From Candidatus Moraniibacteriota bacterium (GTDB lineage Bacteria > Patescibacteriota > Minisyncoccia > Moranbacterales > UBA1568), in contig JACPGV010000002.1 of NCBI GenBank assembly GCA_016182385.1, positions 253,190 through 317,189 on the forward strand: a DNA stretch of 64,000 bases, given 5' to 3'. A model generated the notes under the pieces. That model was not told the DNA's origin. It was given only the letters and a program-made list of their open reading frames with translations, and ran no database searches. Made by a program: the position numbers and the translations under genes. Shown here in pieces: positions 9,437-56,405 of this stretch. Position 1 is the stretch's first letter; each line of letters begins with the position of its first letter.

Positions 9437-11383
9437 ATGATTCATACTGATCAAAACGACATTACTTTTTTTGCTAAAACGAACTTTCGTAATCAGGATC
9501 GGGTGTTTGGTATCAAGACGGATGATCGACGTCGGCACATGTACGTCATCGGCAAGACTGGTATGGGAAAAACCAATCTTCTCGAGAATTTGGCGATACA
9601 AGATATTCAGAAGGGTCATGGTATTGCTTTTATCGATCCGCACGGTGATACGGCGGAAAAACTTATTCGAGCTATTCCAGCGAATCGTATCAATGACGTC
9701 ATTTATTTCAATCCAGCCGATCAAGATTTCCCCATTGCTTTCAATGTAATGGAAAAAGTCAGTCCCGAGTATCGGCATCTTGTGGCGTCCGGTCTGGTCG
9801 GCGTGTTCAAGAAGATATGGGCGGATTCATGGGGACCGCGTCTTGAATATATTCTCCGCAACGCCATTTTGGCACTCCTTGAATACCCTGGTTCGACACT
9901 TCTCGGCGTGACGCGTATTTTGGTGGATAAATCCTATCGTGACCGTGTTGTGGAAAAAGTGACCGATCCGGTGGTGCGGAGTTTTTGGGTGGATGAATTT
10001 TCCAAGTGGAACGACCGCGTACTTCAAGAAGTCATTTCGCCGATTCAAAACAAGGTGGGACAATTTTTGACGAGTTCGCTTATTCGCAATATCGTTGGTC
10101 AGACGACATCGTCTTTTGATGTGCGTGATGTGATGGATGGTCGCAAGATTCTCATCATGAATCTTTCCAAGGGGCGCATAGGTGAAGACAACAGCGCACT
10201 TCTGGGCGCGATGATCATCACCAAGATCCAACTTGCCGCGATGGCACGGGTGGATATTCCCGAAGATGATCGCAATGATTTTTATTTGTATGTCGACGAA
10301 TTTCAAAATTTTGCGACGGAATCATTTGCTAATATTCTTTCGGAAGCTCGCAAATATCATTTGAATCTTGTTCTCGCTAATCAATATGTGACGCAGATCG
10401 ACGAAAAAGTGCGTGACGCTATTTTCGGTAATGCGGGAAGCATCATTTCTTTCCGTGTCGGTGCGATGGATGCGGAGTTTTTGGAAAAAGAATTTGAGCC
10501 GGTATTTATTGCGAATGATCTTGTCAATTTGGAAAAATATAATATTTATCTCAAATTGATGATTGATGGTATCGCTGGAGATGCGTTTTCCGCCACCACG
10601 TTGCCGCCGATCAAATTGGAAGATGCCGGCAACGAAGAGAAGATTATTCATAGTTCTCGGGAGCGGTATTCGTCGAGTAAGATTGAGGTAGAAGACAAGA
10701 TTCGTCGGTGGAGTGGAATGCTTACGGCGGAAGAACGTCAAGCCTTCGCAGGACAATCATCGCGTGCGAGGGATGTGCAGACGACTGTTGAAAAAAATAC
10801 GTCGCAGAGGAAACAAATTCACTCTCCGTCGCCTATGTTTTCTCGAGGAAAAGAACACAAGCCGGTGTACCCACAAAAAAGAGAGGAGCATGTCGTGGTG
10901 ACACGTGAGACACCGATGGCTGAAATACCCGCGAACGAGATTGTTCCAGCGTCTCTGGAAAAGAAAGAAGAGGGAGAACAAAAAGAAAAAAATATTTCTC
11001 AAGGAGAAGAGAGTGTGGAAAAGAAGATGTATGCCGCTTTGTGTGCGACATGTGGTGTCGATATTGCCGTTCCTTTTGAACCGGATGGAAAACGGCCGAC
11101 TTTTTGCAAGGATTGTTTGCGTGATTATCAACGGGCGACTGCCAAAGTACGAAATGAGACAGTGCCGAAAGAGAATGTGGCATCGAATAACGAGAGAGCA
11201 AAGAAAAAAGATGTTCGCACGATGCAGCCGAAAGCGTATGTTTCTTCTGATGCGCCCATGTCGCTTGGTCAGGTGCAACACGTCGGTCCGAAGAAATTCA
11301 AAACATTACAGCGACGTCCTTCTGTCAATTTGCAAGAGGTGCGATCGCTTATTGATCAGGCGAGAAAAAACACAGAAGAGTGA
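9437..11383 (+). CDS. VirD4/TraG/TraD-like (type IV coupling protein family) P-loop ATPase, TM-less, with C-terminal K/E-rich linker and C4 zinc-ribbon
   Basis: Walker A is VIGKTGMGKTNLLENLA and Walker B is DFYLYVDEFQNF. A TraG-D_C-like region follows: …ARKYHLNLVLANQYVTQIDEKVRDAIFGNAGSIISFRVG. The C-terminal motif is CATCG…VPFEPDGKRPTFCKDC. Confidence 0.7.
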   Translation: MIHTDQNDITFFAKTNFRNQDRVFGIKTDDRRRHMYVIGKTGMGKTNLLENLAIQDIQKGHGIAFIDPHGDTAEKLIRAIPANRINDVIYFNPADQDFPIAFNVMEKVSPEYRHLVASGLVGVFKKIWADSWGPRLEYILRNAILALLEYPGSTLLGVTRILVDKSYRDRVVEKVTDPVVRSFWVDEFSKWNDRVLQEVISPIQNKVGQFLTSSLIRNIVGQTTSSFDVRDVMDGRKILIMNLSKGRIGEDNSALLGAMIITKIQLAAMARVDIPEDDRNDFYLYVDEFQNFATESFANILSEARKYHLNLVLANQYVTQIDEKVRDAIFGNAGSIISFRVGAMDAEFLEKEFEPVFIANDLVNLEKYNIYLKLMIDGIAGDAFSATTLPPIKLEDAGNEEKIIHSSRERYSSSKIEVEDKIRRWSGMLTAEERQAFAGQSSRARDVQTTVEKNTSQRKQIHSPSPMFSRGKEHKPVYPQKREEHVVVTRETPMAEIPANEIVPASLEKKEEGEQKEKNISQGEESVEKKMYAALCATCGVDIAVPFEPDGKRPTFCKDCLRDYQRATAKVRNETVPKENVASNNERAKKKDVRTMQPKAYVSSDAPMSLGQVQHVGPKKFKTLQRRPSVNLQEVRSLIDQARKNTEE

Positions 11384-12009: not shown

Positions 12010-13044
12010 ATGAAAAAAATTAAAATTAGTACACTCGTTTATAGTCTAGGTATCGCGTTGGCGGTGCTTTTGAGCGTTAGTTTGTTTATGGTGTACGGTT
12101 TTTCTTCCTCACATAAGGGGGCTGATCGCTTGAAGGATATGTTTCCGTACCCTATAGCTTTTGTTGGATATGGTCAGGCAGTGACGTACGCGTCTCTTTC
12201 TGAAAATATCGCCTCGGTGAGACGTTTTTATGAAACACAGGATTTTTCAAAAGTTGGTTTACGGGTTGATTTTTCTACCAAGGAAGGTGAAAAGCGTTTC
12301 AAGATACGAGAAAAAGAAATTTTGAATAAAATGATTGAAGACGAGGTGATAGAATCACTTGCTAAAAAACGGGGTATTCGTGTAAGTAAAGAAGAGGTGC
12401 GTCAAAATATAACGCACAAACTTGAAGAGTACGGTAGTGAAAAGGAAGTGCGAGAAAATCTTGATCGTTTGTATGGTTGGACAGTGAATGATTTTGAGGA
12501 AAAAGTGGTGATGCCGGGTTTGTATCAGGAAAAATTGCAAAAAACATTTCTTGAAGAATCGGATACGTCTTCTCGCGCGCGTGAGGTGATCGCGTTGGCG
12601 GAGGAGAAGTTAGGATCAGGAATGAGCTTTTCTGATGTCGCAAAAGAATATTCTGAGGGGAAAACATCTGAACAAGGCGGTGAATTAGGGTGGTTTGTTT
12701 TGGAAGACCTTGCTCCGGAATTACGTTTGGTGGTAGCCAATCAAAAAGTCGGTATTCCAGGAGAGAGTGTCGAAAGCGTTCTGGGTTTCCATGTCGTTTT
12801 GGTGGAAGAGATCAAAAAAGAAGAGGGAAAGCAACTGTATCGTTTGCGACAGATTTTTGCTCGTAAAGCGACGTTTGCTGATTGGCTCACGGAAAAAATG
12901 AAAGAAATGACGATCGTTGTTCTTTCTCCGGAGTATCGTTGGGACAATGAAAGAGCCAGAGTGGAATTTCGTAGTCAAGAAATGCGTGAATTCGAACAAG
13001 ATCTTTTCGAAAATACCGAAGGTGATCCAATGTTTTTCTTCTAA
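12010..13044 (+). CDS. SurA/PrsA-like peptidyl-prolyl cis-trans isomerase (PpiC/parvulin type)
   Basis: An N-terminal signal anchor and a SurA-N-like region, then the parvulin core …SFSDVAKEYSEGKTSEQGGELGWFVLEDLAPEL…GFHVVLV. Confidence 0.65.
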   Translation: MKKIKISTLVYSLGIALAVLLSVSLFMVYGFSSSHKGADRLKDMFPYPIAFVGYGQAVTYASLSENIASVRRFYETQDFSKVGLRVDFSTKEGEKRFKIREKEILNKMIEDEVIESLAKKRGIRVSKEEVRQNITHKLEEYGSEKEVRENLDRLYGWTVNDFEEKVVMPGLYQEKLQKTFLEESDTSSRAREVIALAEEKLGSGMSFSDVAKEYSEGKTSEQGGELGWFVLEDLAPELRLVVANQKVGIPGESVESVLGFHVVLVEEIKKEEGKQLYRLRQIFARKATFADWLTEKMKEMTIVVLSPEYRWDNERARVEFRSQEMREFEQDLFENTEGDPMFFF

Positions 13045-13110: not shown

Positions 13111-14391
13111 ATGAGTATGGAAACAAACGAATTTCAAGAAGTCGCTTTTTCTCAAGAAAAGAAAAAGTACCATTGTCGGCACGGGAAATATTTCTTTCTT
13201 TTATTTCTCGCGTGTTTTTTTGGTTTCGCCGGAGGACTCGCATCACCTTTTGTTCTCCACTGGTATGAAAAGAGTTTTTTGTCACCAGTAGAAAAAACCG
13301 AATACACAAGAAGCGTAGTACGAGAGCGGGTAGTCGCGGAAGATCAACTCGTTGCTGATTTGGTAGAAAAAAATTCTCCGAGTGTTGTGAGCATCGTCAT
13401 TTCAAGAGATGTACCGAAGGTGCGTGGTTTTTATAATCCCTTTGGAAGTGGATTCCCGTTTTTTTTCGATCCCTTCAATTCGGGAAATCAGGAAGAGGAT
13501 CGGAATGATACTCGTCGAGTGGAGAAGCAACGTGTCGGATCGGGTTCGGGATTTTTTGTTTCGACGGACGGTCTTGTCGTTACCAATAAGCACGTCGTTT
13601 CCAATGAACGAGATGAGTATACGGTGATTACGAGTGATAACAAGGAATATCCGGCAGCCGTATTGGCTCGCGACCCGTATAATGATATTGCTATTTTGAA
13701 AATTGATGTGAGTGATGTTGTGCCGGTGTCGCTTGGTGATTCAGAGAATGTAAAGGTTGGCCAAACGGTACTCGCGATTGGCAATCCTTTGGGTGAATTT
13801 GCTAATTCGGTTTCCCGCGGTATTGTTTCTGGTTTACAGAGAAGTGTTGAGGCGGGATCGGATTTTGGTGATACGGAAAAGCTTTCCAATATCATACAAA
13901 CGGATGCCGCTATCAATCCGGGAAATTCCGGCGGACCACTTTTCAACCTTTCCGGTGAGGTGATCGGGGTGAATGTCGCCATGGCGAGCGGCGCGGAAAA
14001 TATCGCATTCGCTTTGCCAATCAATTCGGTGAAGCGTGTGGTGGAGCAGGTGCGTACAACTGGCAAGATCTCCGTACCGTATATCGGTGTACGATATATT
14101 ATTCTTAGTGAGGGTATAGCCAAGCAAAACAATCTTGATGTTTCTTATGGTGCGCTCATTTTGCGCGGACAAAATATGACTGATTTCGCGGTTATTCCAG
14201 GATCACCGGCAGATAAAGCTGGACTTATGGAAAACGATATTATTTTGGAAATCAATGGTGTAAAAATTGATGGAGATCACCCGATCGCTCTTCTCATCAA
14301 TCAGTATAATGCGGGAGATGAAATAACGCTAAAAGTTTGGCATAAGGGAGATACAAAGGATGTCAAAGTGAGGCTGGAGGAACGGAGGTAG
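13111..14391 (+). CDS. htrA: HtrA/DegP-family serine protease with C-terminal PDZ domain
   Basis: The catalytic His is in GLVVTNKHVV, the Asp in NDIAILKI and the Ser in GNSGGPL. A PDZ segment follows: …ILEINGVKIDGDH…. Confidence 0.9.
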   Translation: MSMETNEFQEVAFSQEKKKYHCRHGKYFFLLFLACFFGFAGGLASPFVLHWYEKSFLSPVEKTEYTRSVVRERVVAEDQLVADLVEKNSPSVVSIVISRDVPKVRGFYNPFGSGFPFFFDPFNSGNQEEDRNDTRRVEKQRVGSGSGFFVSTDGLVVTNKHVVSNERDEYTVITSDNKEYPAAVLARDPYNDIAILKIDVSDVVPVSLGDSENVKVGQTVLAIGNPLGEFANSVSRGIVSGLQRSVEAGSDFGDTEKLSNIIQTDAAINPGNSGGPLFNLSGEVIGVNVAMASGAENIAFALPINSVKRVVEQVRTTGKISVPYIGVRYIILSEGIAKQNNLDVSYGALILRGQNMTDFAVIPGSPADKAGLMENDIILEINGVKIDGDHPIALLINQYNAGDEITLKVWHKGDTKDVKVRLEERR

Positions 14392-50760: not shown

Positions 50761-50886
50761 AAACATTCAAGGCAGAGTCAGCGTGTTGAAAATATTTTTT
50801 CATAATCGGGAAGTAAAAAGGTGAGATTGACAGGAGAGGTATTTTTTTGTACGCTTTATTGCACCAGATCAACGAGGAGAAGTGAG

Positions 50887-51372
50887 ATGAGGGCAAAGAC
50901 GGGTGTCGGGTTTATTCTTTCGTCCGTTGTTGACAAAGAAACGAAGTTTTTGGTTATCGAAGAACTTCGTGATAATGAAGAAATCTTTAAAAAAAGTGGA
51001 ATGATTTCATTTCCGCTTGAGACGATGGAGGAAGGAGAGTCGCCAAAGGAAACAATCTTTCGGCTTTTGGAAGAGGAGTTGGGGATTGCTTCACACGAAG
51101 TGGAAATTTCCGAAATACCAGGACAAAAATTTCGATTTTTTCCCGGAAAAAATATTGTTACGCGGTACGGATATGGTTTTTTGTTGGGCGACCCGTATCG
51201 GGCATTCACCCCCAAAGATACGGATATTCGTATTCGGGGATGGATGTCTATCGAAGAATTGAGGGGGTATGGCAATGTGCGAGTGGAAACACTCCCCATA
51301 CTCAATCATTTTGTAGCGTCTTATCGGGCGCGCTATATCGAAGGAAGACTTAGAGAGGTCTTTTTCGTATAG
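50887..51372 (+). CDS. Nudix hydrolase (second paralog)
   Basis: Nudix-box-like ETMEEGESPKETIFRLLEEELGI. GAGGAGA RBS 6 nt upstream of the ATG at 50887. Confidence 0.65.
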   Translation: MRAKTGVGFILSSVVDKETKFLVIEELRDNEEIFKKSGMISFPLETMEEGESPKETIFRLLEEELGIASHEVEISEIPGQKFRFFPGKNIVTRYGYGFLLGDPYRAFTPKDTDIRIRGWMSIEELRGYGNVRVETLPILNHFVASYRARYIEGRLREVFFV

Positions 51373-51384
51373 TAACGTCAAGAG

Positions 51385-52227
51385 CTATACAGCGTGCTTT
51401 GAAGCGCGCTGTTTTTTCTTTAAAGAAAGAGTTGTGTGGGGAAAGTATTTTTCTAAGAAAATGTTTGAATAATTTTTTGGTGCAAATCCATTAAAGATTT
51501 CAATATTTTTGAGAGTATTTTGACGAAGAGAAAGACAGGACTGTATTTTTCCGAGGAGACCTCCGGTGACATCGACATTATGTGATGAGGAAAGTTCGCT
51601 TTGATTTTTTACATCGAAAATATTGATGTGTTCGATGAGAGCGGCGTTTTTGTGGCGGTGAGGGTCACGCGTAAAGAGACCATCGATATCGGAAGCAAAA
51701 AATATTTTTTGTGCCTTGTATTTTTGAGAAAGAAAAGCGGCGATGGTATCACCCGAACAAACGGACATACCGAGAGTCGTATCAAAAACCATTTCACCGT
51801 AGAGGAGGGGAATGCAATTCTTTTCAAGGGCAGCGGTGATGGTGTTTGTTTGAAAATTTTTTATGTTTCCGTTTTTTTGTACAATGACGGAGGCGGTGTG
51901 GCATGGTGTTAGAGGGAGTCCGCTTTTTATAAAGATACGAGCGATAATATGGTTGAGTTTTTGATTGGCTTGTTGCGACAAAAAGGCCGCGTGCCATTTT
52001 TCTTTGTCGTTTCGCGTTCCTGCGTGGAGAGCGTATCGTTTGGCAAGATGATGTCCTGCAGCGCCTGATCCGTGAAGGAGAATGAGATGAAAAGGCTTTT
52101 TGGTGCGAGCAAAAGCGAGCGAACGCGCTATTTTTTCAAGAAGCGTCTGCCGTACGGTGAGTAATTCACGGTTTTTATAGGTGACCACGCTACCGCCAAT
52201 TTTGAGTATATAGAGTGGGAGTTTCAT
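51385..52227 (-). CDS. isopentenyl phosphate kinase / FomA-like amino-acid-kinase-family protein
   Basis: YILKIGGSVVTYK…HLILLHGSGAAGHHLAKRY… matches the IPK signature (G-G-S at the N-terminus, a His-rich glycine loop) and …IFFASDIDGLFTRDP…. IPK and FomA cannot be separated by eye. The start could also be the ATG at 52284. Confidence 0.6.
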   Translation of the reverse strand: MKLPLYILKIGGSVVTYKNRELLTVRQTLLEKIARSLAFARTKKPFHLILLHGSGAAGHHLAKRYALHAGTRNDKEKWHAAFLSQQANQKLNHIIARIFIKSGLPLTPCHTASVIVQKNGNIKNFQTNTITAALEKNCIPLLYGEMVFDTTLGMSVCSGDTIAAFLSQKYKAQKIFFASDIDGLFTRDPHRHKNAALIEHINIFDVKNQSELSSSHNVDVTGGLLGKIQSCLSLRQNTLKNIEIFNGFAPKNYSNIFLEKYFPHTTLSLKKKQRASKHAV

Positions 52228-52313
52228 GATATTACCATACCTCTTTTTCTTATTATGTCCAAAAAAGGCTTTGGCTTGCCTCATTTATTGCTTTCCGATA
52301 TACTATCTCGTAT

Positions 52314-53993
52314 ATGAAACAGCATATCAAAATTCGTTGGCATTTTGCCCTAGTTCTTTTGTTGGGACTTGTTTCTGGATTGATCGCTTATCCGCAGGTG
52401 GTATCGTTCTTTCCTTCTTTTTATGACGCGCTCAATGTTTTTCAGGTGCACAAAGGGCTTGATTTACAAGGCGGTATTCATCTTGAGTATAAGGCGGATA
52501 CATCGAATATTGCTGATGAAAAAGTTGAAGACGCTCTTTCCGCGGCGGAAGCGGTTATTGAACGACGCGTGAACGCGTTCGGTGTTGGTGAACCGCTCGT
52601 GCAGTTATCACGTTCCGGGTCAGAGCGACGAATCATTGTTGAATTGCCGGGAATAAAAGATATTGAACAGGCGAAAAAAATGATTAAAGAGACTCCTTTT
52701 TTAGATTTTCGCGAATCGGGCAACGAAGAACAGGGGCAGCAGTTTGATGATCTTAACAAGCAAACCAAAGAAAACGCTGAAAAAATATTGCTCGCGGCGC
52801 AATTGGCGGGAAGTGATTTTTCTGCGCTTGCTAAGGAACAAAGTCAGGATCCCGGATCAAAGGAAAATGGCGGTGATCTCGGTTTTGCCAAAAGGGGAGC
52901 ATACGTTCAGGCCTTTGACGATGTTGTTTTTGGTGATGCTTTGAAGGTTGGTGAAGTGTCTCCCAATCTTGTGGAAAGTCAGTTTGGCTGGCATATCATC
53001 AAGAAACTTGAAGAGCGGGGCGAGGGTGATGATCGAGAAGTGCGGGCGGCGCATATTCTCTTTGCCAAATATTCTTTGGATCAGTTTCCGGAATTGAAAT
53101 TTTCCCCGACGGGATTATCGGGCAAACATTTGAAAGACGCCTATGTCGACTATCAAAGTCAGGGTATTGGCTCTCCGCAGATCGCTCTCCGTTTTGATGA
53201 TGAAGGAACAAGACTGTTCGCTGAAATTACCAAGCGGAATATTGGCAAACCGGTAGCTATTTTTTTGGATAAGGAAATTATCAGTCAGCCGACGGTACAA
53301 AATGAAATTGTTGCCGGTCAAGCAGTGATTACCGGGAATTTTACGATGGCGGAAGCGAATGATCTTGTGAAGCGTCTTAATGAGGGCGCGCTTCCTGTGC
53401 CGATCACACTCGTCGGTCAACAATCGGTTGATGCGTCACTTGGTGAAGTCGCGTTACAAAAAAGTCTTCTGGCCGGTCTGGTCGGACTTGGGGCGGTGGC
53501 GGTTTTTATGATGCTCTACTATCGTTTACTAGGTATCGTAGCGGTGTTTGCCCTTCTTTTGTATACGGCGATGCTTCTTGCTTTGTTCAAACTTTCCATT
53601 TTTACGCCGTTTGCTATCACCGTAACACTCTCTGGTATAGCCGGATTCATTCTTTCTATTGGTATTGCGGTAGATGCCAACGTACTTATTTTTGAGCGTA
53701 CGCGTGAAGAGCTTTCTTATGGCAAAGGGGTGATCAAATCTATTCGCGAAGGCTTTCGTCGCGCGTGGCCGAGTATTCGTGATGGACACGTCTCGACACT
53801 TATCACGACGGTTATTCTTATGGGATTTGGCACCGGCTTTGTGAAAGGTTTTGCTGTCATTCTTTCGCTTGGTGTGTTGTTGTCGCTTTTTACAGCTGTT
53901 GTTCTTGTGCGTATCACGACCACGTTTCTCGCAGGAGAGTGGATGGAACGTCACGCCGCCTTGCTTGTTTCTCCTAAAAAACCCCTTGAATAA
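52314..53993 (+). CDS. secD: protein translocase subunit SecD, with inserted parvulin-type PPIase-like segment in the periplasmic domain
   Basis: N-terminal …VHKGLDLQGGIHLEYKAD…IERRVNAFGVGEPLVQLSRSGSERRIIVELPG and the C-terminal 6-TM SecD region (…FILSIGIAVDANVLIFERTREEL…). The internal segment …SDFSALAKEQSQDPGSKENGGDLGFAKRGAYVQAFDDVVFGDALKVGEVSPNLVESQFGWHIIKKL…VRAAHILF matches the PpiC rotamase consensus. Confidence 0.85.
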   Translation: MKQHIKIRWHFALVLLLGLVSGLIAYPQVVSFFPSFYDALNVFQVHKGLDLQGGIHLEYKADTSNIADEKVEDALSAAEAVIERRVNAFGVGEPLVQLSRSGSERRIIVELPGIKDIEQAKKMIKETPFLDFRESGNEEQGQQFDDLNKQTKENAEKILLAAQLAGSDFSALAKEQSQDPGSKENGGDLGFAKRGAYVQAFDDVVFGDALKVGEVSPNLVESQFGWHIIKKLEERGEGDDREVRAAHILFAKYSLDQFPELKFSPTGLSGKHLKDAYVDYQSQGIGSPQIALRFDDEGTRLFAEITKRNIGKPVAIFLDKEIISQPTVQNEIVAGQAVITGNFTMAEANDLVKRLNEGALPVPITLVGQQSVDASLGEVALQKSLLAGLVGLGAVAVFMMLYYRLLGIVAVFALLLYTAMLLALFKLSIFTPFAITVTLSGIAGFILSIGIAVDANVLIFERTREELSYGKGVIKSIREGFRRAWPSIRDGHVSTLITTVILMGFGTGFVKGFAVILSLGVLLSLFTAVVLVRITTTFLAGEWMERHAALLVSPKKPLE

Positions 53994-53999
53994 AAATTT

Positions 54000-54896
54000 A
54001 TGCTTCAGATTATTCAAAAAAGGATATACGCATACTGGTTTTCCGGCATCCTTACCGGTGCTAGTGTAGTTGCTCTTCTTTTTTTTGGATTGAATTTTGG
54101 TATTGACTTTAAAGGGGGAACACTCATGGAAGTGCAATTTACTCTTGAAACTATACCTTCGGTAGCAGAAGTAGAACAGCGTCTTACCGATCTTTCTTTG
54201 CAGAGTCTCACTATTCAACCGACCGATGACAATGGAATGTTACTTCGGTATCTTGCTTCCGATGAAGCCGCGAATGATAACGTACTTTCCAAGTTACGAG
54301 AGCTTGACGCTGGTATCATACAGCTTCGAACGGATTTTATTGGGGGATCAGTTTCCGATCAAATCAAGAAAAACGCTCTTTCTGGAATTATCCTCTCTAT
54401 TGTCGGTATCGCTTTGTATATCGCGTGGGCGTTTCGTCGCGTATCGGGCATAGTGACTTCGTGGGAGTACGGGATGGGTGCGATTATTGCCCTCGCACAC
54501 GACATCATTATCGTCATCGGCATTTTTGTTCTTTTGGGAAAGTATTCTGGCGTTGAGATTGGTGTACCGTTTATTGCGGCGCTTCTTACTATTCTTGGTT
54601 ATTCCGTCAACGATACCATCGTCGTTTATGATCGTGTACGCGAAAACCTCCTTCGCTCGGCGAGGAAAGAAGATTTTGAAGTCATCGTTAATCGTTCTCT
54701 CAATGAGACGCTTGGGCGTTCCATCAACACATCGCTTACTGTTATTATTACTCTTGTCGCCATTGTTCTTTTTGGTGGAGAAAGTATCAAGTGGTTTGGT
54801 GTCGCTTTGCTCGCCGGAGTGACCTTTGGTACCTATTCATCTATTTATATCGCGTCCGCTCTTTTGGTGACGCGCTACAAGATGAAGACGAAATAA
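54000..54896 (+). CDS. secF: protein translocase subunit SecF
   Basis: …LNFGIDFKGGTLMEVQF… with the C-terminal 6-TM region …LSIVGIALYIAWAFRR…, directly after secD. Confidence 0.85.
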   Translation: MLQIIQKRIYAYWFSGILTGASVVALLFFGLNFGIDFKGGTLMEVQFTLETIPSVAEVEQRLTDLSLQSLTIQPTDDNGMLLRYLASDEAANDNVLSKLRELDAGIIQLRTDFIGGSVSDQIKKNALSGIILSIVGIALYIAWAFRRVSGIVTSWEYGMGAIIALAHDIIIVIGIFVLLGKYSGVEIGVPFIAALLTILGYSVNDTIVVYDRVRENLLRSARKEDFEVIVNRSLNETLGRSINTSLTVIITLVAIVLFGGESIKWFGVALLAGVTFGTYSSIYIASALLVTRYKMKTK

Positions 54897-54915: not shown

Positions 54916-55203
54916 ATGAAATGGAATCCATTTAAGAAAAAAGAAGAAGAGGTTGAATCAGTGCCCAATGTTCCCGGTATGCCCGATCCGAGCAAGATGG
55001 GAATGTTTGAGCGGATGGCGTATAAACGTTTTCTCAAGATGAGTCCCACGGAACGTGAAAAAGTGATGAAAAAAGCGCTAACGCCCAAAAATGTCGAGAA
55101 ACACAAAGGGGAGATACTGGCTTCTCTTGAGGCGATGCGCAAGAACAAACAAATTTCTGATGATCAGTATCGCTTGGCGAAAGCGAAATTCGGATTGAAA
55201 TAA
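54916..55203 (+). CDS. small hypothetical basic protein (95 aa)
   Basis: An ORF between secF and tyrS. Weak RBS, no domain. Confidence 0.3.
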   Translation: MKWNPFKKKEEEVESVPNVPGMPDPSKMGMFERMAYKRFLKMSPTEREKVMKKALTPKNVEKHKGEILASLEAMRKNKQISDDQYRLAKAKFGLK

Positions 55204-55208
55204 ATCAT

Positions 55209-56405
55209 ATGACACAGAGAGAACAACAAATAGAAGAACTTCTCACGCGTGGTGTTGTCGAAGTGATTGATCGTGAACATTTGCGAGCACGTCTTTTGAA
55301 GGGGGATACACTTCGTGTGAAGCTTGGCATTGATCCTACAAGCCCTAATATCCATTTGGGTCGTTCCATCCCGCTTCTGAAGTTACGCGATTTTCAGGAA
55401 CTTGGATGCCAAATCGTTTTGATCGTTGGTGATTTTACCGGAGTTATCGGTGATACGAGCGATAAAGAAAGTGAACGACCAATGCTTTCTCCTGATGTGA
55501 TCGAGAAGAATATGCAGACGTATACTGAACAGGTAGGAAAATTGATCAATCTTGAAAAGGCTGAGGTGCATTATAATTCCACGTGGTTGGAGAAGCTTCG
55601 TTATGAGGATATTGGTACGCAGGCGGACGCTTTTTCGCTCGCGGAGTTTATTGCGCGCGATAATATTCGTCGACGTCTTGACGACGGCAAACGCGTATCG
55701 CTTCGTGAAGTACTGTATCCTTTGATGCAGGGATTTGACAGTATCGCGGTAAACGCTGATGTGGAGATTGGCGGAACGGATCAACGCTTCAATTTACTCG
55801 CTGGACGAACGCTCCAGGCTCAACACGGACAAGCGCCACAAGATATTCTCATGACGAACTTAATTTTGGGTACGGATGGACGAAAAATGAGCTCAAGTTG
55901 GGGAAATACCATCAATCTTTTTGACACCCCTCAAGAGATGTTTGGTAAAGTGATGAGTATTCCCGACGAACTTATTATGGAATATCTTGTTCAGTGTACG
56001 CGCGTCTCGATGGCCGATATAGCCACGATGGCCGAAGAGATTGTTACCGGTGGTAATCCGCGTGATACCAAGGTGCGTCTTGCCAAAGAAATCGTTACAC
56101 TCTATCACGGCCAAGAAGCGGCCATGACAGCAGAAACGTATTTTGTCGAGACCTTTTCTCGAGGAGTGCTTCCGGAAAATGTTCGCGAGGTAGAAATTGA
56201 AGAAGGAATGAAAATTGTTGACGCGCTTGCGAGTGTCATGCTTGCCGCAAGCAAGTCTGATGCTCGTCGAAAAATAGAACAGGGCGGCGTCACGATTGCT
56301 GATGAAAAAATAACGGATGTGAATCAAGTGATGGAAAAACGTTTTGAGGGTAATGTGATGCGTGTCGGGAAAAAAGATTTTGTAAAAATTGTGATGAAAA
56401 AGTAA
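55209..56405 (+). CDS. tyrS: tyrosine--tRNA ligase (with C-terminal S4-like domain)
   Basis: GIDPTSPNIHLGRSIPLL (HIGH-type) … GRKMSSSWGN (KMSKS-type), and C-terminal …KSDARRKIEQGGVTIADEKI. Confidence 0.85.
   Translation: MTQREQQIEELLTRGVVEVIDREHLRARLLKGDTLRVKLGIDPTSPNIHLGRSIPLLKLRDFQELGCQIVLIVGDFTGVIGDTSDKESERPMLSPDVIEKNMQTYTEQVGKLINLEKAEVHYNSTWLEKLRYEDIGTQADAFSLAEFIARDNIRRRLDDGKRVSLREVLYPLMQGFDSIAVNADVEIGGTDQRFNLLAGRTLQAQHGQAPQDILMTNLILGTDGRKMSSSWGNTINLFDTPQEMFGKVMSIPDELIMEYLVQCTRVSMADIATMAEEIVTGGNPRDTKVRLAKEIVTLYHGQEAAMTAETYFVETFSRGVLPENVREVEIEEGMKIVDALASVMLAASKSDARRKIEQGGVTIADEKITDVNQVMEKRFEGNVMRVGKKDFVKIVMKK

Follow-up and report, generated by a model that had tools for sequence, protein, structure and literature searches.

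A parvulin domain, predicted to be circularly permuted, inserted in SecD of Moranbacteria

Why should a subunit of the protein translocase carry a prolyl isomerase domain within its own chain? The question is raised by a 64,000-nucleotide stretch from a metagenome-assembled genome (MAG) of Candidatus Moraniibacteriota (Moranbacteria), a lineage of the candidate phyla radiation (CPR; Patescibacteria). The stretch, called the window below, has a G+C content of 43%, and the element in question is its secD gene, whose product contains a parvulin, a domain of the peptidyl-prolyl isomerase (PPIase) type, in the P1 region. The domain is predicted to be a parvulin whose first strand has been displaced to its end. 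The best explanation, in our view, is a foldase that has SecD itself as its tether at the exit of the translocon, a reading that we hold with fair rather than firm confidence.

The parvulin insert and its host protein

That a PpiC/parvulin domain lies inside the extracytoplasmic P1 region of SecD had been proposed in an earlier note, made from the sequence alone, and both Pfam and alignment with sequences in the PDB bear this out. In the scan with Rotamase profiles that the note had suggested, two profiles match far above their gathering cutoffs: Rotamase_3 (PF13616) at residues 148-234 (E 6e-22, 78.8 bits vs. a cutoff of 22.5) and Rotamase (PF00639) at residues 148-230 (E 5.9e-18, 66.1 bits vs. 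21.7). Such E-values rule out chance matches. The PDB sequence matches of SecD include SecDF together with the SurA, PrsA, and Par10 parvulins. No Pfam match to the SurA_N, Trigger_C, or PrsA NC domains is found in SecD. Foldseek, run with the model of full SecD, returns SecDF and resistance-nodulation-division (RND) matches only, and no parvulin. The module and its core are placed as follows.

52719..53099, + strand: whole inserted module, residues 136-262, the gap between two blocks aligned with Thermus thermophilus SecDF
52725..53018, + strand: collinear parvulin core alpha1-alpha2-alpha3-beta2-alpha4-beta3-beta4, residues 138-235 (Rotamase_3, Rotamase, and 1m5y at 3.5e-14)

The two blocks pair SecD residues 44-155 with residues 32-138 of T. 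thermophilus SecDF, and residues 263-554 with residues 155-440. Between them, about 36 residues of the T. thermophilus protein (119-154) are exchanged for 127 residues. The insertion that the note had suspected is therefore a true one relative to the Thermus protein, but its site is the junction of P1 base and P1 head, outside the head fold, where the chain leaves the last strand of the base, 'LDFRE', just ahead of the conserved fold of the head.

The host protein and its partner comprise the following features.

52314..53993, + strand: secD, the full insert-bearing gene, 559 aa plus stop codon (open reading frame list, TIGR01129, 3aqp match)
52338..52388, + strand: transmembrane segment (TM) 1 of SecD, residues ~9-25 (model helix 3-25; topology by SecDF homology)
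52542..52715, + strand: N-terminal P1 base, SecD_1st (PF21760), residues 77-134 (Pfam 1.9e-17)
53112..53399, + strand: P1 head, SecDF_P1_head (PF22599), residues 267-362 (Pfam 1.7e-30)
SecD residues 369-529: SecD_SecF_C (Pfam E 2.8e-8)
53433..53933, + strand: TM2-TM6, residues ~374-540 (model helices; T. thermophilus SecDF alignment)
54000..54896, + strand: secF, 298 aa, 6 nt downstream of secD (TIGR00966 at 6.6e-81, 271.9 bits, cutoff 160)

With the SecD equivalog model TIGR01129 the protein reaches 366.5 bits over residues 48-534, where the cutoff is 244.4 (NCBIfam scan). Among solved structures, T. thermophilus SecDF (3aqp) is the top sequence relative (E 1.2e-68) and Deinococcus radiodurans SecDF (5xan) scores 8.9e-66; the same two SecDF structures rank first in Foldseek with the full AlphaFold model. 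The P1 base segment aligns with T. thermophilus SecDF residues 32-~118 and ends in the strand 'LDFRE' (model strand 130-135). The P1 head covers Pfam profile positions 20-114 of 114 and aligns with the T. thermophilus protein from residue 155 on. These head and base boundaries rest on Pfam models and PDB sequence alignment. In TM4, Asp454 (53673-53675) lies in the segment 'AVDANVLIFER', where it pairs with the Asp of T. thermophilus 'AVDGNVLSFER', and is invariant in 77 homologs; we take it to be the proton-relay Asp known from Tsukazaki 2011. The equivalog score, the P1 base and head between TM1 and TM2, the TM4 Asp, and the SecF partner are thus all found, SecF, from a gene separate from secD, completing the 12-TM SecDF unit. 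The invariant TM4 Asp and the neighboring secF suggest that this SecD is a functioning part of the motor rather than a copy in decay. The N-terminus ahead of TM1 is basic (MKQHIKIR), as on the cytoplasmic side, so that by homology and sequence the whole P1 region, insert included, would be extracytoplasmic. In NCBI, an identical protein is entered under the name 'MAG: protein translocase subunit SecD [Candidatus Moranbacteria bacterium].' Scanning for promoters and terminators around secDF gave nothing above shuffled expectation.

Because the source is a MAG, the fusion might be suspected to be an artefact, either an assembly chimera or a miscalled gene joining pieces of SecD to a parvulin gene. 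We give this almost no weight. SecD sequence flanks the parvulin on either side in one unbroken reading frame, and the architecture recurs in at least 120 independent 90%-identity clusters, drawn from NCBI, JGI, ENA, and Logan, and in at least 17 species-level genomes. In a collection of 5.8 billion proteins, all of the best 120 matches (70-100% identity) carry both SecD and Rotamase Pfam domains, an identity of architecture that argues against an assembly artefact. A search with the insert alone among 1.84 billion 50%-identity representatives brought up 23,484 parvulin relatives, and among the best 150 of these about 21 are SecDs that carry the module in the corresponding position. Among GTDB species genomes, at least 32 loci were confirmed, and at least 17 of them are SecD fusions, labeled Moranbacteria, Buchananbacteria, Komeilibacteria, Kerfeldbacteria, Parcubacteria, or 'Patescibacteria group.' Cluster look-up added a member from Falkowbacteria. 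The fusion is a widespread trait of the Patescibacteria lineage and no isolated case. Every named fusion entry is annotated merely as SecD, and the NCBIfam scan found no curated model specific for a SecD-parvulin fusion.

A wider, non-CPR spread, suggested by labels of Lysobacteraceae, Gammaproteobacteria, Binatia, and Bdellovibrionales (loci L001, L005, L013, L016, L018, and L027), was considered and rejected. Except for L018, which is cut at a contig end, the head and TM regions of these SecDs are 58-77% identical to their nearest family neighbors, which are mostly CPR-labeled; the corresponding identity to Thermus is ~28%. The G+C content of the 'Lysobacteraceae' locus L005 is 30%. This low value and the high identity to CPR-labeled neighbors indicate that the non-CPR labels are probably MAG misassignments. 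The SecD-parvulin family would then appear to be one Patescibacteria clade.

Two parvulin modules at the same position are found in five genome loci (L013, L016, L017, L023, and L027) and in proteins P0238 and P0274. Their layout is alpha1 to beta4, beta1, a loop with a conserved C-x6-C motif, a second alpha1 to beta4, beta1', and then the head (residues 146-414 in L017). The second module of P0274 covers the full Rotamase profile (1-95). Such proteins could consist of two permuted units in tandem, or the first module could hold a canonical parvulin within its beta4/beta1' loop, and the cysteine pair may form a disulfide.

Chain order of the inserted domain

In canonical parvulins such as Pin1 and Par10, beta1 and beta4 are adjacent antiparallel central strands, with one active-site His each. 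The canonical chain order, beta1-alpha1-alpha2-alpha3-beta2-alpha4-beta3-beta4, is not that of the SecD insert, in which beta1 comes after beta4. The Rotamase_3 match begins at profile position 33 of 116, and residues 135-147, ahead of alpha1, are variable in the alignment and helical in the model, with no strand. The late start in the profile and the lack of a strand before alpha1 mean that beta1 is missing from its usual place. The strand 'VRAAHILF' follows the strand 'GWHIIKK,' as the earlier note had observed, the two being residues 242-251 and 225-235, respectively. The two features beyond the core are as follows.

53019..53036, + strand: connector from beta4 to beta1' (ERGEGDD region), residues 236-241 (25-member alignment)
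53037..53066, + strand: displaced beta1 (beta1'), 'EVRAAHILFA,' residues 242-251, with H247 at 53052-53054 (model strand; re-permuted alignment)

The connector would mark the place where the N and C termini of the ancestral parvulin met. Its length varies from 6 to more than 60 residues among the 25 family members aligned. In P0236, P0130, L007, L003, and L012 it consists of up to more than 60 low-complexity, acidic, or Asn/Glu-rich residues, and the strand and its His are kept.

Putting the strand back in its canonical place extends the alignment to known parvulins. In a re-permuted construct, with residues 241-253 moved to the front, Rotamase_3 matches at positions 15-115 and the score rises from 83.8 to 88.1 bits. 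From native to re-permuted insert, the match to PrsA1 (6xd8) grows from 27-90 to 4-90 (52.2 to 55.2 bits), that to PrsA (1zk6) from 14-93 to 4-93 (43.7 to 50.8 bits), that to SurA-P2 (4g2p) from 26-108 to 8-107 (48.6 to 52.8 bits), and that to 2m08 from 22-91 to 7-91 (48.4 to 50.5 bits). In the re-permuted alignment 'EVRAAHILF' pairs residue by residue with beta1 of SurA P2, 'EVHARHILL.'

The structure prediction that the note had proposed tells the same story: AlphaFold builds a compact domain that includes the 'HIL' strand. In the full model, helices at 138-163, 169-176, and 180-184 are followed by a strand at 188-193, a helix at 199-205, and strands at 225-235 and 242-251, the last two forming a beta4/beta1' hairpin. 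No other part of the protein is modeled as confidently as the insert, which has a predicted local distance difference test (pLDDT) score of 81-92 for the block and of 92 for the block of strand 242-251. A model of the insert alone (135-266), without any SecD context, has a mean pLDDT of 91.5 and a predicted template-modeling score (pTM) of 0.83, with the last strand at ~95. That the strand is so well built there argues against its belonging to the sheet of the P1 head. With this model, the best Foldseek match is a Bacteroides fragilis PPIase (8hm3; 118 columns, root-mean-square deviation 3.9 A, E 4e-8, query template-modeling score 0.61). Since beta1 and beta4 are neighbors in the canonical sheet, a short beta4-beta1 hairpin is the expected product of permutation at the natural termini. 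The new termini lie close together in the former beta1/alpha1 loop, which suits the unit for insertion in a host protein. Of the two options left by the earlier note, a permuted or a partial domain, the former is upheld by the re-permuted alignment, the AlphaFold models, and the retention of the strand His in 76 of 77 Moranbacteria SecDs, and the latter is not. A complete, circularly permuted parvulin is thus a well-supported prediction.

The same facts might be read differently, namely as a truncated parvulin that lacks beta1 and is not permuted, 'EVRAAHILF' being either left over from a second parvulin that was lost or the opening strand of the P1 head. Tandem parvulins such as those of SurA do run from beta4 to the next beta1, and the insert is collinear with such junctions; SecDs with two modules exist; and positions 1-19 of the Pfam P1_head profile are unmatched. 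We nevertheless find this reading quite improbable. The strand still pairs with beta4 when the head is absent, with the high scores of the insert-only model, and it is conserved across connectors of very different length. A parvulin without beta1 would lose a catalytic His as well as a core strand, yet the His is almost invariably kept. Moreover, every family member examined has as many beta1-type strands as it has modules.

If the insert is a permuted parvulin, where did it come from? Relatives outside SecD are informative in this regard. The closest at hand is encoded in the window itself.

12010..13044, + strand: membrane-anchored SurA_N plus parvulin protein, PpiD/PrsA-like, 344 aa (Pfam; alignments)

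A separate SurA/PrsA-like PPIase had been noted at this place before, and the protein indeed has a TM anchor, a SurA_N-like region (SurA_N_3), and a Rotamase match (E 5e-12). Its parvulin also lacks an N-terminal beta1, the Rotamase match starting at profile position 12 and that to Rotamase_3 at position 32, and a beta1-like segment, 'LYRLRQIF,' comes after 'GFHVV.' Re-permutation raises its score marginally, from 46.0 to 48.2 bits. Two of the four residues of the catalytic tetrad are lost (Asp to Gly, and the beta1 His to Gln), so that within the window no parvulin other than the SecD module has a full catalytic set. The protein is probably a PPIase-dead holdase of the PpiD type, as judged from these substitutions. 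A phmmer search of the six-frame translation of the window with the insert did not detect it. Directly downstream, at 13111..14391 (+ strand), is a gene for an HtrA/DegP-like serine protease (Trypsin_2 at 1e-37, plus PDZ), and the two look like a small cluster for extracytoplasmic protein quality control.

The anchored protein has a full-length homolog, P0232 (E 2e-18), with a TM anchor, a SurA_N-like region, and a parvulin in the permuted register whose tetrad is intact ('GFHIIKSLEVKDDQIRVAHILIKY'). In P0158, a predicted lipoprotein ('LSGCGS') of 512 aa, residues ~60-170 form an out-of-phase parvulin unit that is 50% identical to the SecD insert; it has Gln in place of the beta1' His, and the region C-terminal to it is unrelated and gives a weak WG-repeat match. 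The presence of the unit in this lipoprotein implies that the permuted module has moved between host proteins. Its presence in both P0232 and P0158 implies in addition that the permuted register is a lineage trait of the extracytoplasmic parvulins of these bacteria and is not restricted to SecD. The best matches to the insert outside SecD are tandem parvulin proteins in canonical phase, for example an Eremiobacterota 'PrsA' with three or four modules, each starting from beta1 and the last ending at beta4. In such arrays, as also in SurA P1-P2, the chain runs from beta4 into the next beta1, so that the SecD unit amounts to an out-of-phase window on an array. Duplication followed by truncation is the classic route to circular permutation, and we infer that the SecD unit arose by this route from a tandem array.

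Active site and a possible role at the translocon exit

Is the inserted domain likely to be an enzyme? The parvulin tetrad (H247, D179, S222, and H227) and the Leu/Phe proline pocket (L189 and F201) are all present. We take these residues to be the counterparts of Pin1 H59, C113, T152, and H157 and of L122 and F134, in the same order. In the core, D179 is encoded at 52848-52850, S222 at 52977-52979, and H227 at 52992-52994; L189, Y197, and F201 also belong to it. D179, H227, F201, and a Ser or Thr at 222 are found in 77 of 77 Moranbacteria SecDs and in 25 of 25 divergent members, the inserts of which are 31-57% identical; for H247 the counts are 76 of 77 and 22 of 25. Within Moranbacteria the insert is 45-67% identical, compared with ~70-80% for the TM region. 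A faster-evolving insert that keeps its active-site positions suggests selection on catalysis or on the catalytic pocket. With the tetrad and the proline-pocket residues all kept, the insert is most likely an active PPIase of the non-phospho-specific kind and a chaperone.

Studies on other bacteria indicate what such a domain might do in SecD. In the established mechanics of SecDF (Tsukazaki 2011 and Furukawa 2017, reviewed in PMC8669966, PMC6028853), an unfolded chain leaving SecYEG is bound by the P1 head, whose swings between conformations, powered by the flow of protons through the TM region, pull the chain out and let it go. PpiD/YfgM is stationed at SecYEG (PMC9643414, PMC8669966). The two parvulin domains of SurA are predicted by AlphaFold to contact the P1 head of SecDF in its extended form (PMC9987972). 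In Mycoplasma, which has no cell wall, the PrsA-like PPIase Mpn444 cross-links to SecD and is part of a translocon dome (10.1101/2024.09.05.611430, 10.1101/2025.04.25.650208).

By analogy, we propose that a SecD paired with SecF acquired a permuted parvulin at the junction of P1 base and P1 head. The ends of the module would emerge at the former beta1/alpha1 loop and be spliced into SecD there. Lying beside the substrate-binding head, at the outer face of the membrane and next to the SecYEG exit, the parvulin would meet chains as SecDF captures them. It could hold the emerging chain and isomerize prolyl bonds, and thereby promote folding and release, and it would probably move with the head. 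A foldase tethered to SecD would thus do in cis the job that PrsA, PpiD/YfgM, SurA, and the Mpn444 dome do in trans. The fusion would also secure 1:1 stoichiometry and co-localization in an organism with a small genome. CPR cell envelopes are not known to have an outer membrane that would enclose a periplasm. Domain content, insertion site, the permuted order of the elements, residue conservation, and a broad distribution in Patescibacteria are what the analysis shows; that the domain is catalytic, that it acts on substrates in transit, and that it is coupled to the proton-driven head swing are the parts of the proposal that we infer.

Several points weigh against this proposal. The gain in bit score upon re-permutation is modest (~3-7 bits), and the parvulin matches of the insert in Foldseek are few. 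The place of beta1' in the sheet is a well-supported prediction from secondary structure and confidence values; where the parvulin lies with respect to head cleft and SecY exit is likewise predicted from these. The beta1' His is absent from 3 of the 25 divergent members. The same genome encodes a second, anchored parvulin protein, so that the fusion is not the sole candidate foldase. Finally, some parvulin domains with good sequence matches are inactive, as in PpiD (PMC9643414).

The last point leads to the main alternative, in which the module, like the parvulin domain of E. coli PpiD, is silent as an enzyme and isomerizes no prolyl bonds but extends the P1 head for chaperoning or substrate binding, so enlarging the surface on which emerging chains are held. 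Inactivity thus has a precedent among Sec-associated parvulin domains (PMC9643414), a loss of tetrad residues is seen in the anchored parvulin protein of the window itself, and a position beside the substrate-binding head suits a holding role. But the tetrad and the Leu/Phe pocket are conserved down to the lowest insert identities in the family, and this deep conservation makes the silent reading an unlikely one. Also counting against it is the closest sequence match of the insert, SurA P2, presumably the catalytically active domain of SurA.

The insert might instead serve SecDF itself, as a structural element that braces or regulates the P1 head in its swing between F-form and I-form, or as a docking site for an envelope partner. 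The base-to-head junction is the hinge of the head movement (PMC8669966, PMC6028853), and the length ahead of the head varies elsewhere as well, E. coli SecD 319-613 aligning to residues 259-541 of the Moranbacteria protein. However, a brace has no need of an intact PPIase active site, and the occurrence of the permuted unit in anchored SurA_N chaperones and in a lipoprotein points to a general role in folding. We judge this possibility to be very unlikely, and return to that of a SecD-tethered foldase.

What would follow if the foldase moves with the head? Swings powered by the proton motive force would present the chain to the PPIase pocket and then release it, the parvulin riding on the hinge of the head, and translocation, prolyl isomerization, and folding would be mechanically coupled within one polypeptide. 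The fusion would also be natural 'Rosetta-stone' evidence that the contact between P1 head and parvulin proposed for E. coli SurA is real and ancient. That all of this holds together, a moving foldase, an ancient P1-head/parvulin interface, and the first recognized permuted parvulin, captured out of phase from a tandem array, is a tentative idea that we would sooner doubt than expect.

The earlier note knew of no described SecD-parvulin fusion, and none was found by us in the open-access papers and preprints searched, whether with parvulin or with PPIase as the partner; nor did these describe a parvulin in terms of 'circular permutation' or 'circularly permuted.' A preprint on giant genes that names both SecD and Rotamase was considered and describes no fusion. 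The sequences are public and their Pfam matches precomputed, so the fusion has been visible to anyone browsing domain architectures. What is new is its recognition, together with the permuted topology, the breadth of its occurrence, and its 'Rosetta-stone' value for the P1-head/parvulin interface. The reception and folding of chains at the Sec exit have been largely deduced from transient, low-resolution complexes (PpiD/YfgM, SurA with the holo-translocon, and the Mycoplasma dome), and a natural, widely conserved covalent fusion of foldase and SecD is independent evolutionary evidence that places a parvulin beside the P1 head. It offers a compact and genetically simple system in which the coupling of translocation and folding could be tested, one chain with defined active-site residues. 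The parvulin fold gains a topological variant, a circular permutant whose new termini suit domain insertion. The fusion also shows genome-reduced Patescibacteria consolidating envelope functions and exposes an annotation gap, fusion proteins being labeled simply "SecD." Given the precedents in trans, it should be notable and useful to specialists in secretion rather than shocking.

Gene neighborhood and comparison with known systems

The genes secD, secF, a small open reading frame (ORF), tyrS, and pheS are tightly packed on one strand, the aminoacyl-tRNA synthetase identities resting on sequence inspection. The small ORF (54916..55203, + strand) encodes 95 aa, is lysine-rich, and lies between secF and a 398-aa ORF at 55209..56405 whose product looks like a tyrosyl-tRNA synthetase. 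Upstream of secD are a NUDIX hydrolase ORF (50821..51372, + strand) and a divergently oriented ORF of the amino-acid-kinase family (51385..52284, - strand; AA_kinase at 1.6e-35), the product of which may be an isopentenyl phosphate kinase. Further away, a 648-aa ORF (9437..11383, + strand) has a P-loop, 'GKTGMGKT,' and a C-terminal Cys4 zinc-ribbon-like motif, 'CATCGVDIAVPFEPDGKRPTFCKDCL,' and may encode a TraD/VirD4-like or DUF87-type ATPase.

The SecDFs of T. thermophilus (3AQP, 5YHF) and D. radiodurans (5XAN, 5XAP) have, like Moranbacteria SecD, TM1, P1 base, P1 head, TM2-6, the TM4 Asp, and a SecF partner, and are presumably the same proton-driven, substrate-pulling motor. They differ in linking the last base strand to the head by ~36 residues, in place of the 127-residue parvulin module of the Moranbacteria protein, and in being single-chain proteins, whereas in Moranbacteria SecD and SecF are encoded by two genes.

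By sequence, the solved structure nearest to the insert is P2 of E. coli SurA (1M5Y, E 1.6e-16). The predicted docking of SurA to the P1 head (PMC9987972) is the same pairing that is made covalent in Moranbacteria SecD. SurA, however, is soluble, resides in the periplasm, and combines an N/C chaperone core with parvulins in canonical order, whereas the SecD insert is permuted and has no SurA_N core. The best structural match is the periplasmic PPIase of B. fragilis (8HM3, 8HM4), an essential protein and the target of the BfUbb toxin. Its sequence alignment with the insert continues through beta1' (query 12-116; SecD residues 146-250), a continuity that most likely reflects the beta1 of its next domain. 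It is a soluble multi-domain protein of 427 residues, unlike the single inserted domain of SecD.

Closer in location are the anchored parvulins of the Sec exit. E. coli PpiD/YfgM is an anchored parvulin chaperone at the translocon exit, a type that the 12010 ORF of the window resembles. But the PpiD parvulin is inactive and PpiD binds the SecY lateral gate, whereas the SecD insert keeps its tetrad and sits on SecD. PrsA of Firmicutes (4WO7, 6XD8, 1ZK6), whose structures match the insert with E-values of 1e-12 to 7e-13 in the PDB sequence search, is likewise a membrane-tethered, non-phospho-specific parvulin at the Sec exit of bacteria without an outer membrane. PrsA is a protein of its own, a dimer anchored by lipid, that has an NC chaperone domain and a parvulin of the canonical kind; the tether in Moranbacteria is SecD itself. 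The SecD insert may work like PrsA, SurA, or PpiD, but with no SurA_N or NC core it is not a member of their family. Finally, the Mdp proteins of Mycoplasma pneumoniae (Mpn444, Mpn436, and Mpn489) are PrsA-like PPIases on the outer face of SecD/SecDF, again in a bacterium without a periplasm. These are large, separate lipoproteins with propeller, chaperone-like, and PPIase domains, which form a trimeric dome and, as described, have parvulins in canonical order. Moranbacteria SecD is not of this type, its PPIase being an internal domain of 127 residues.

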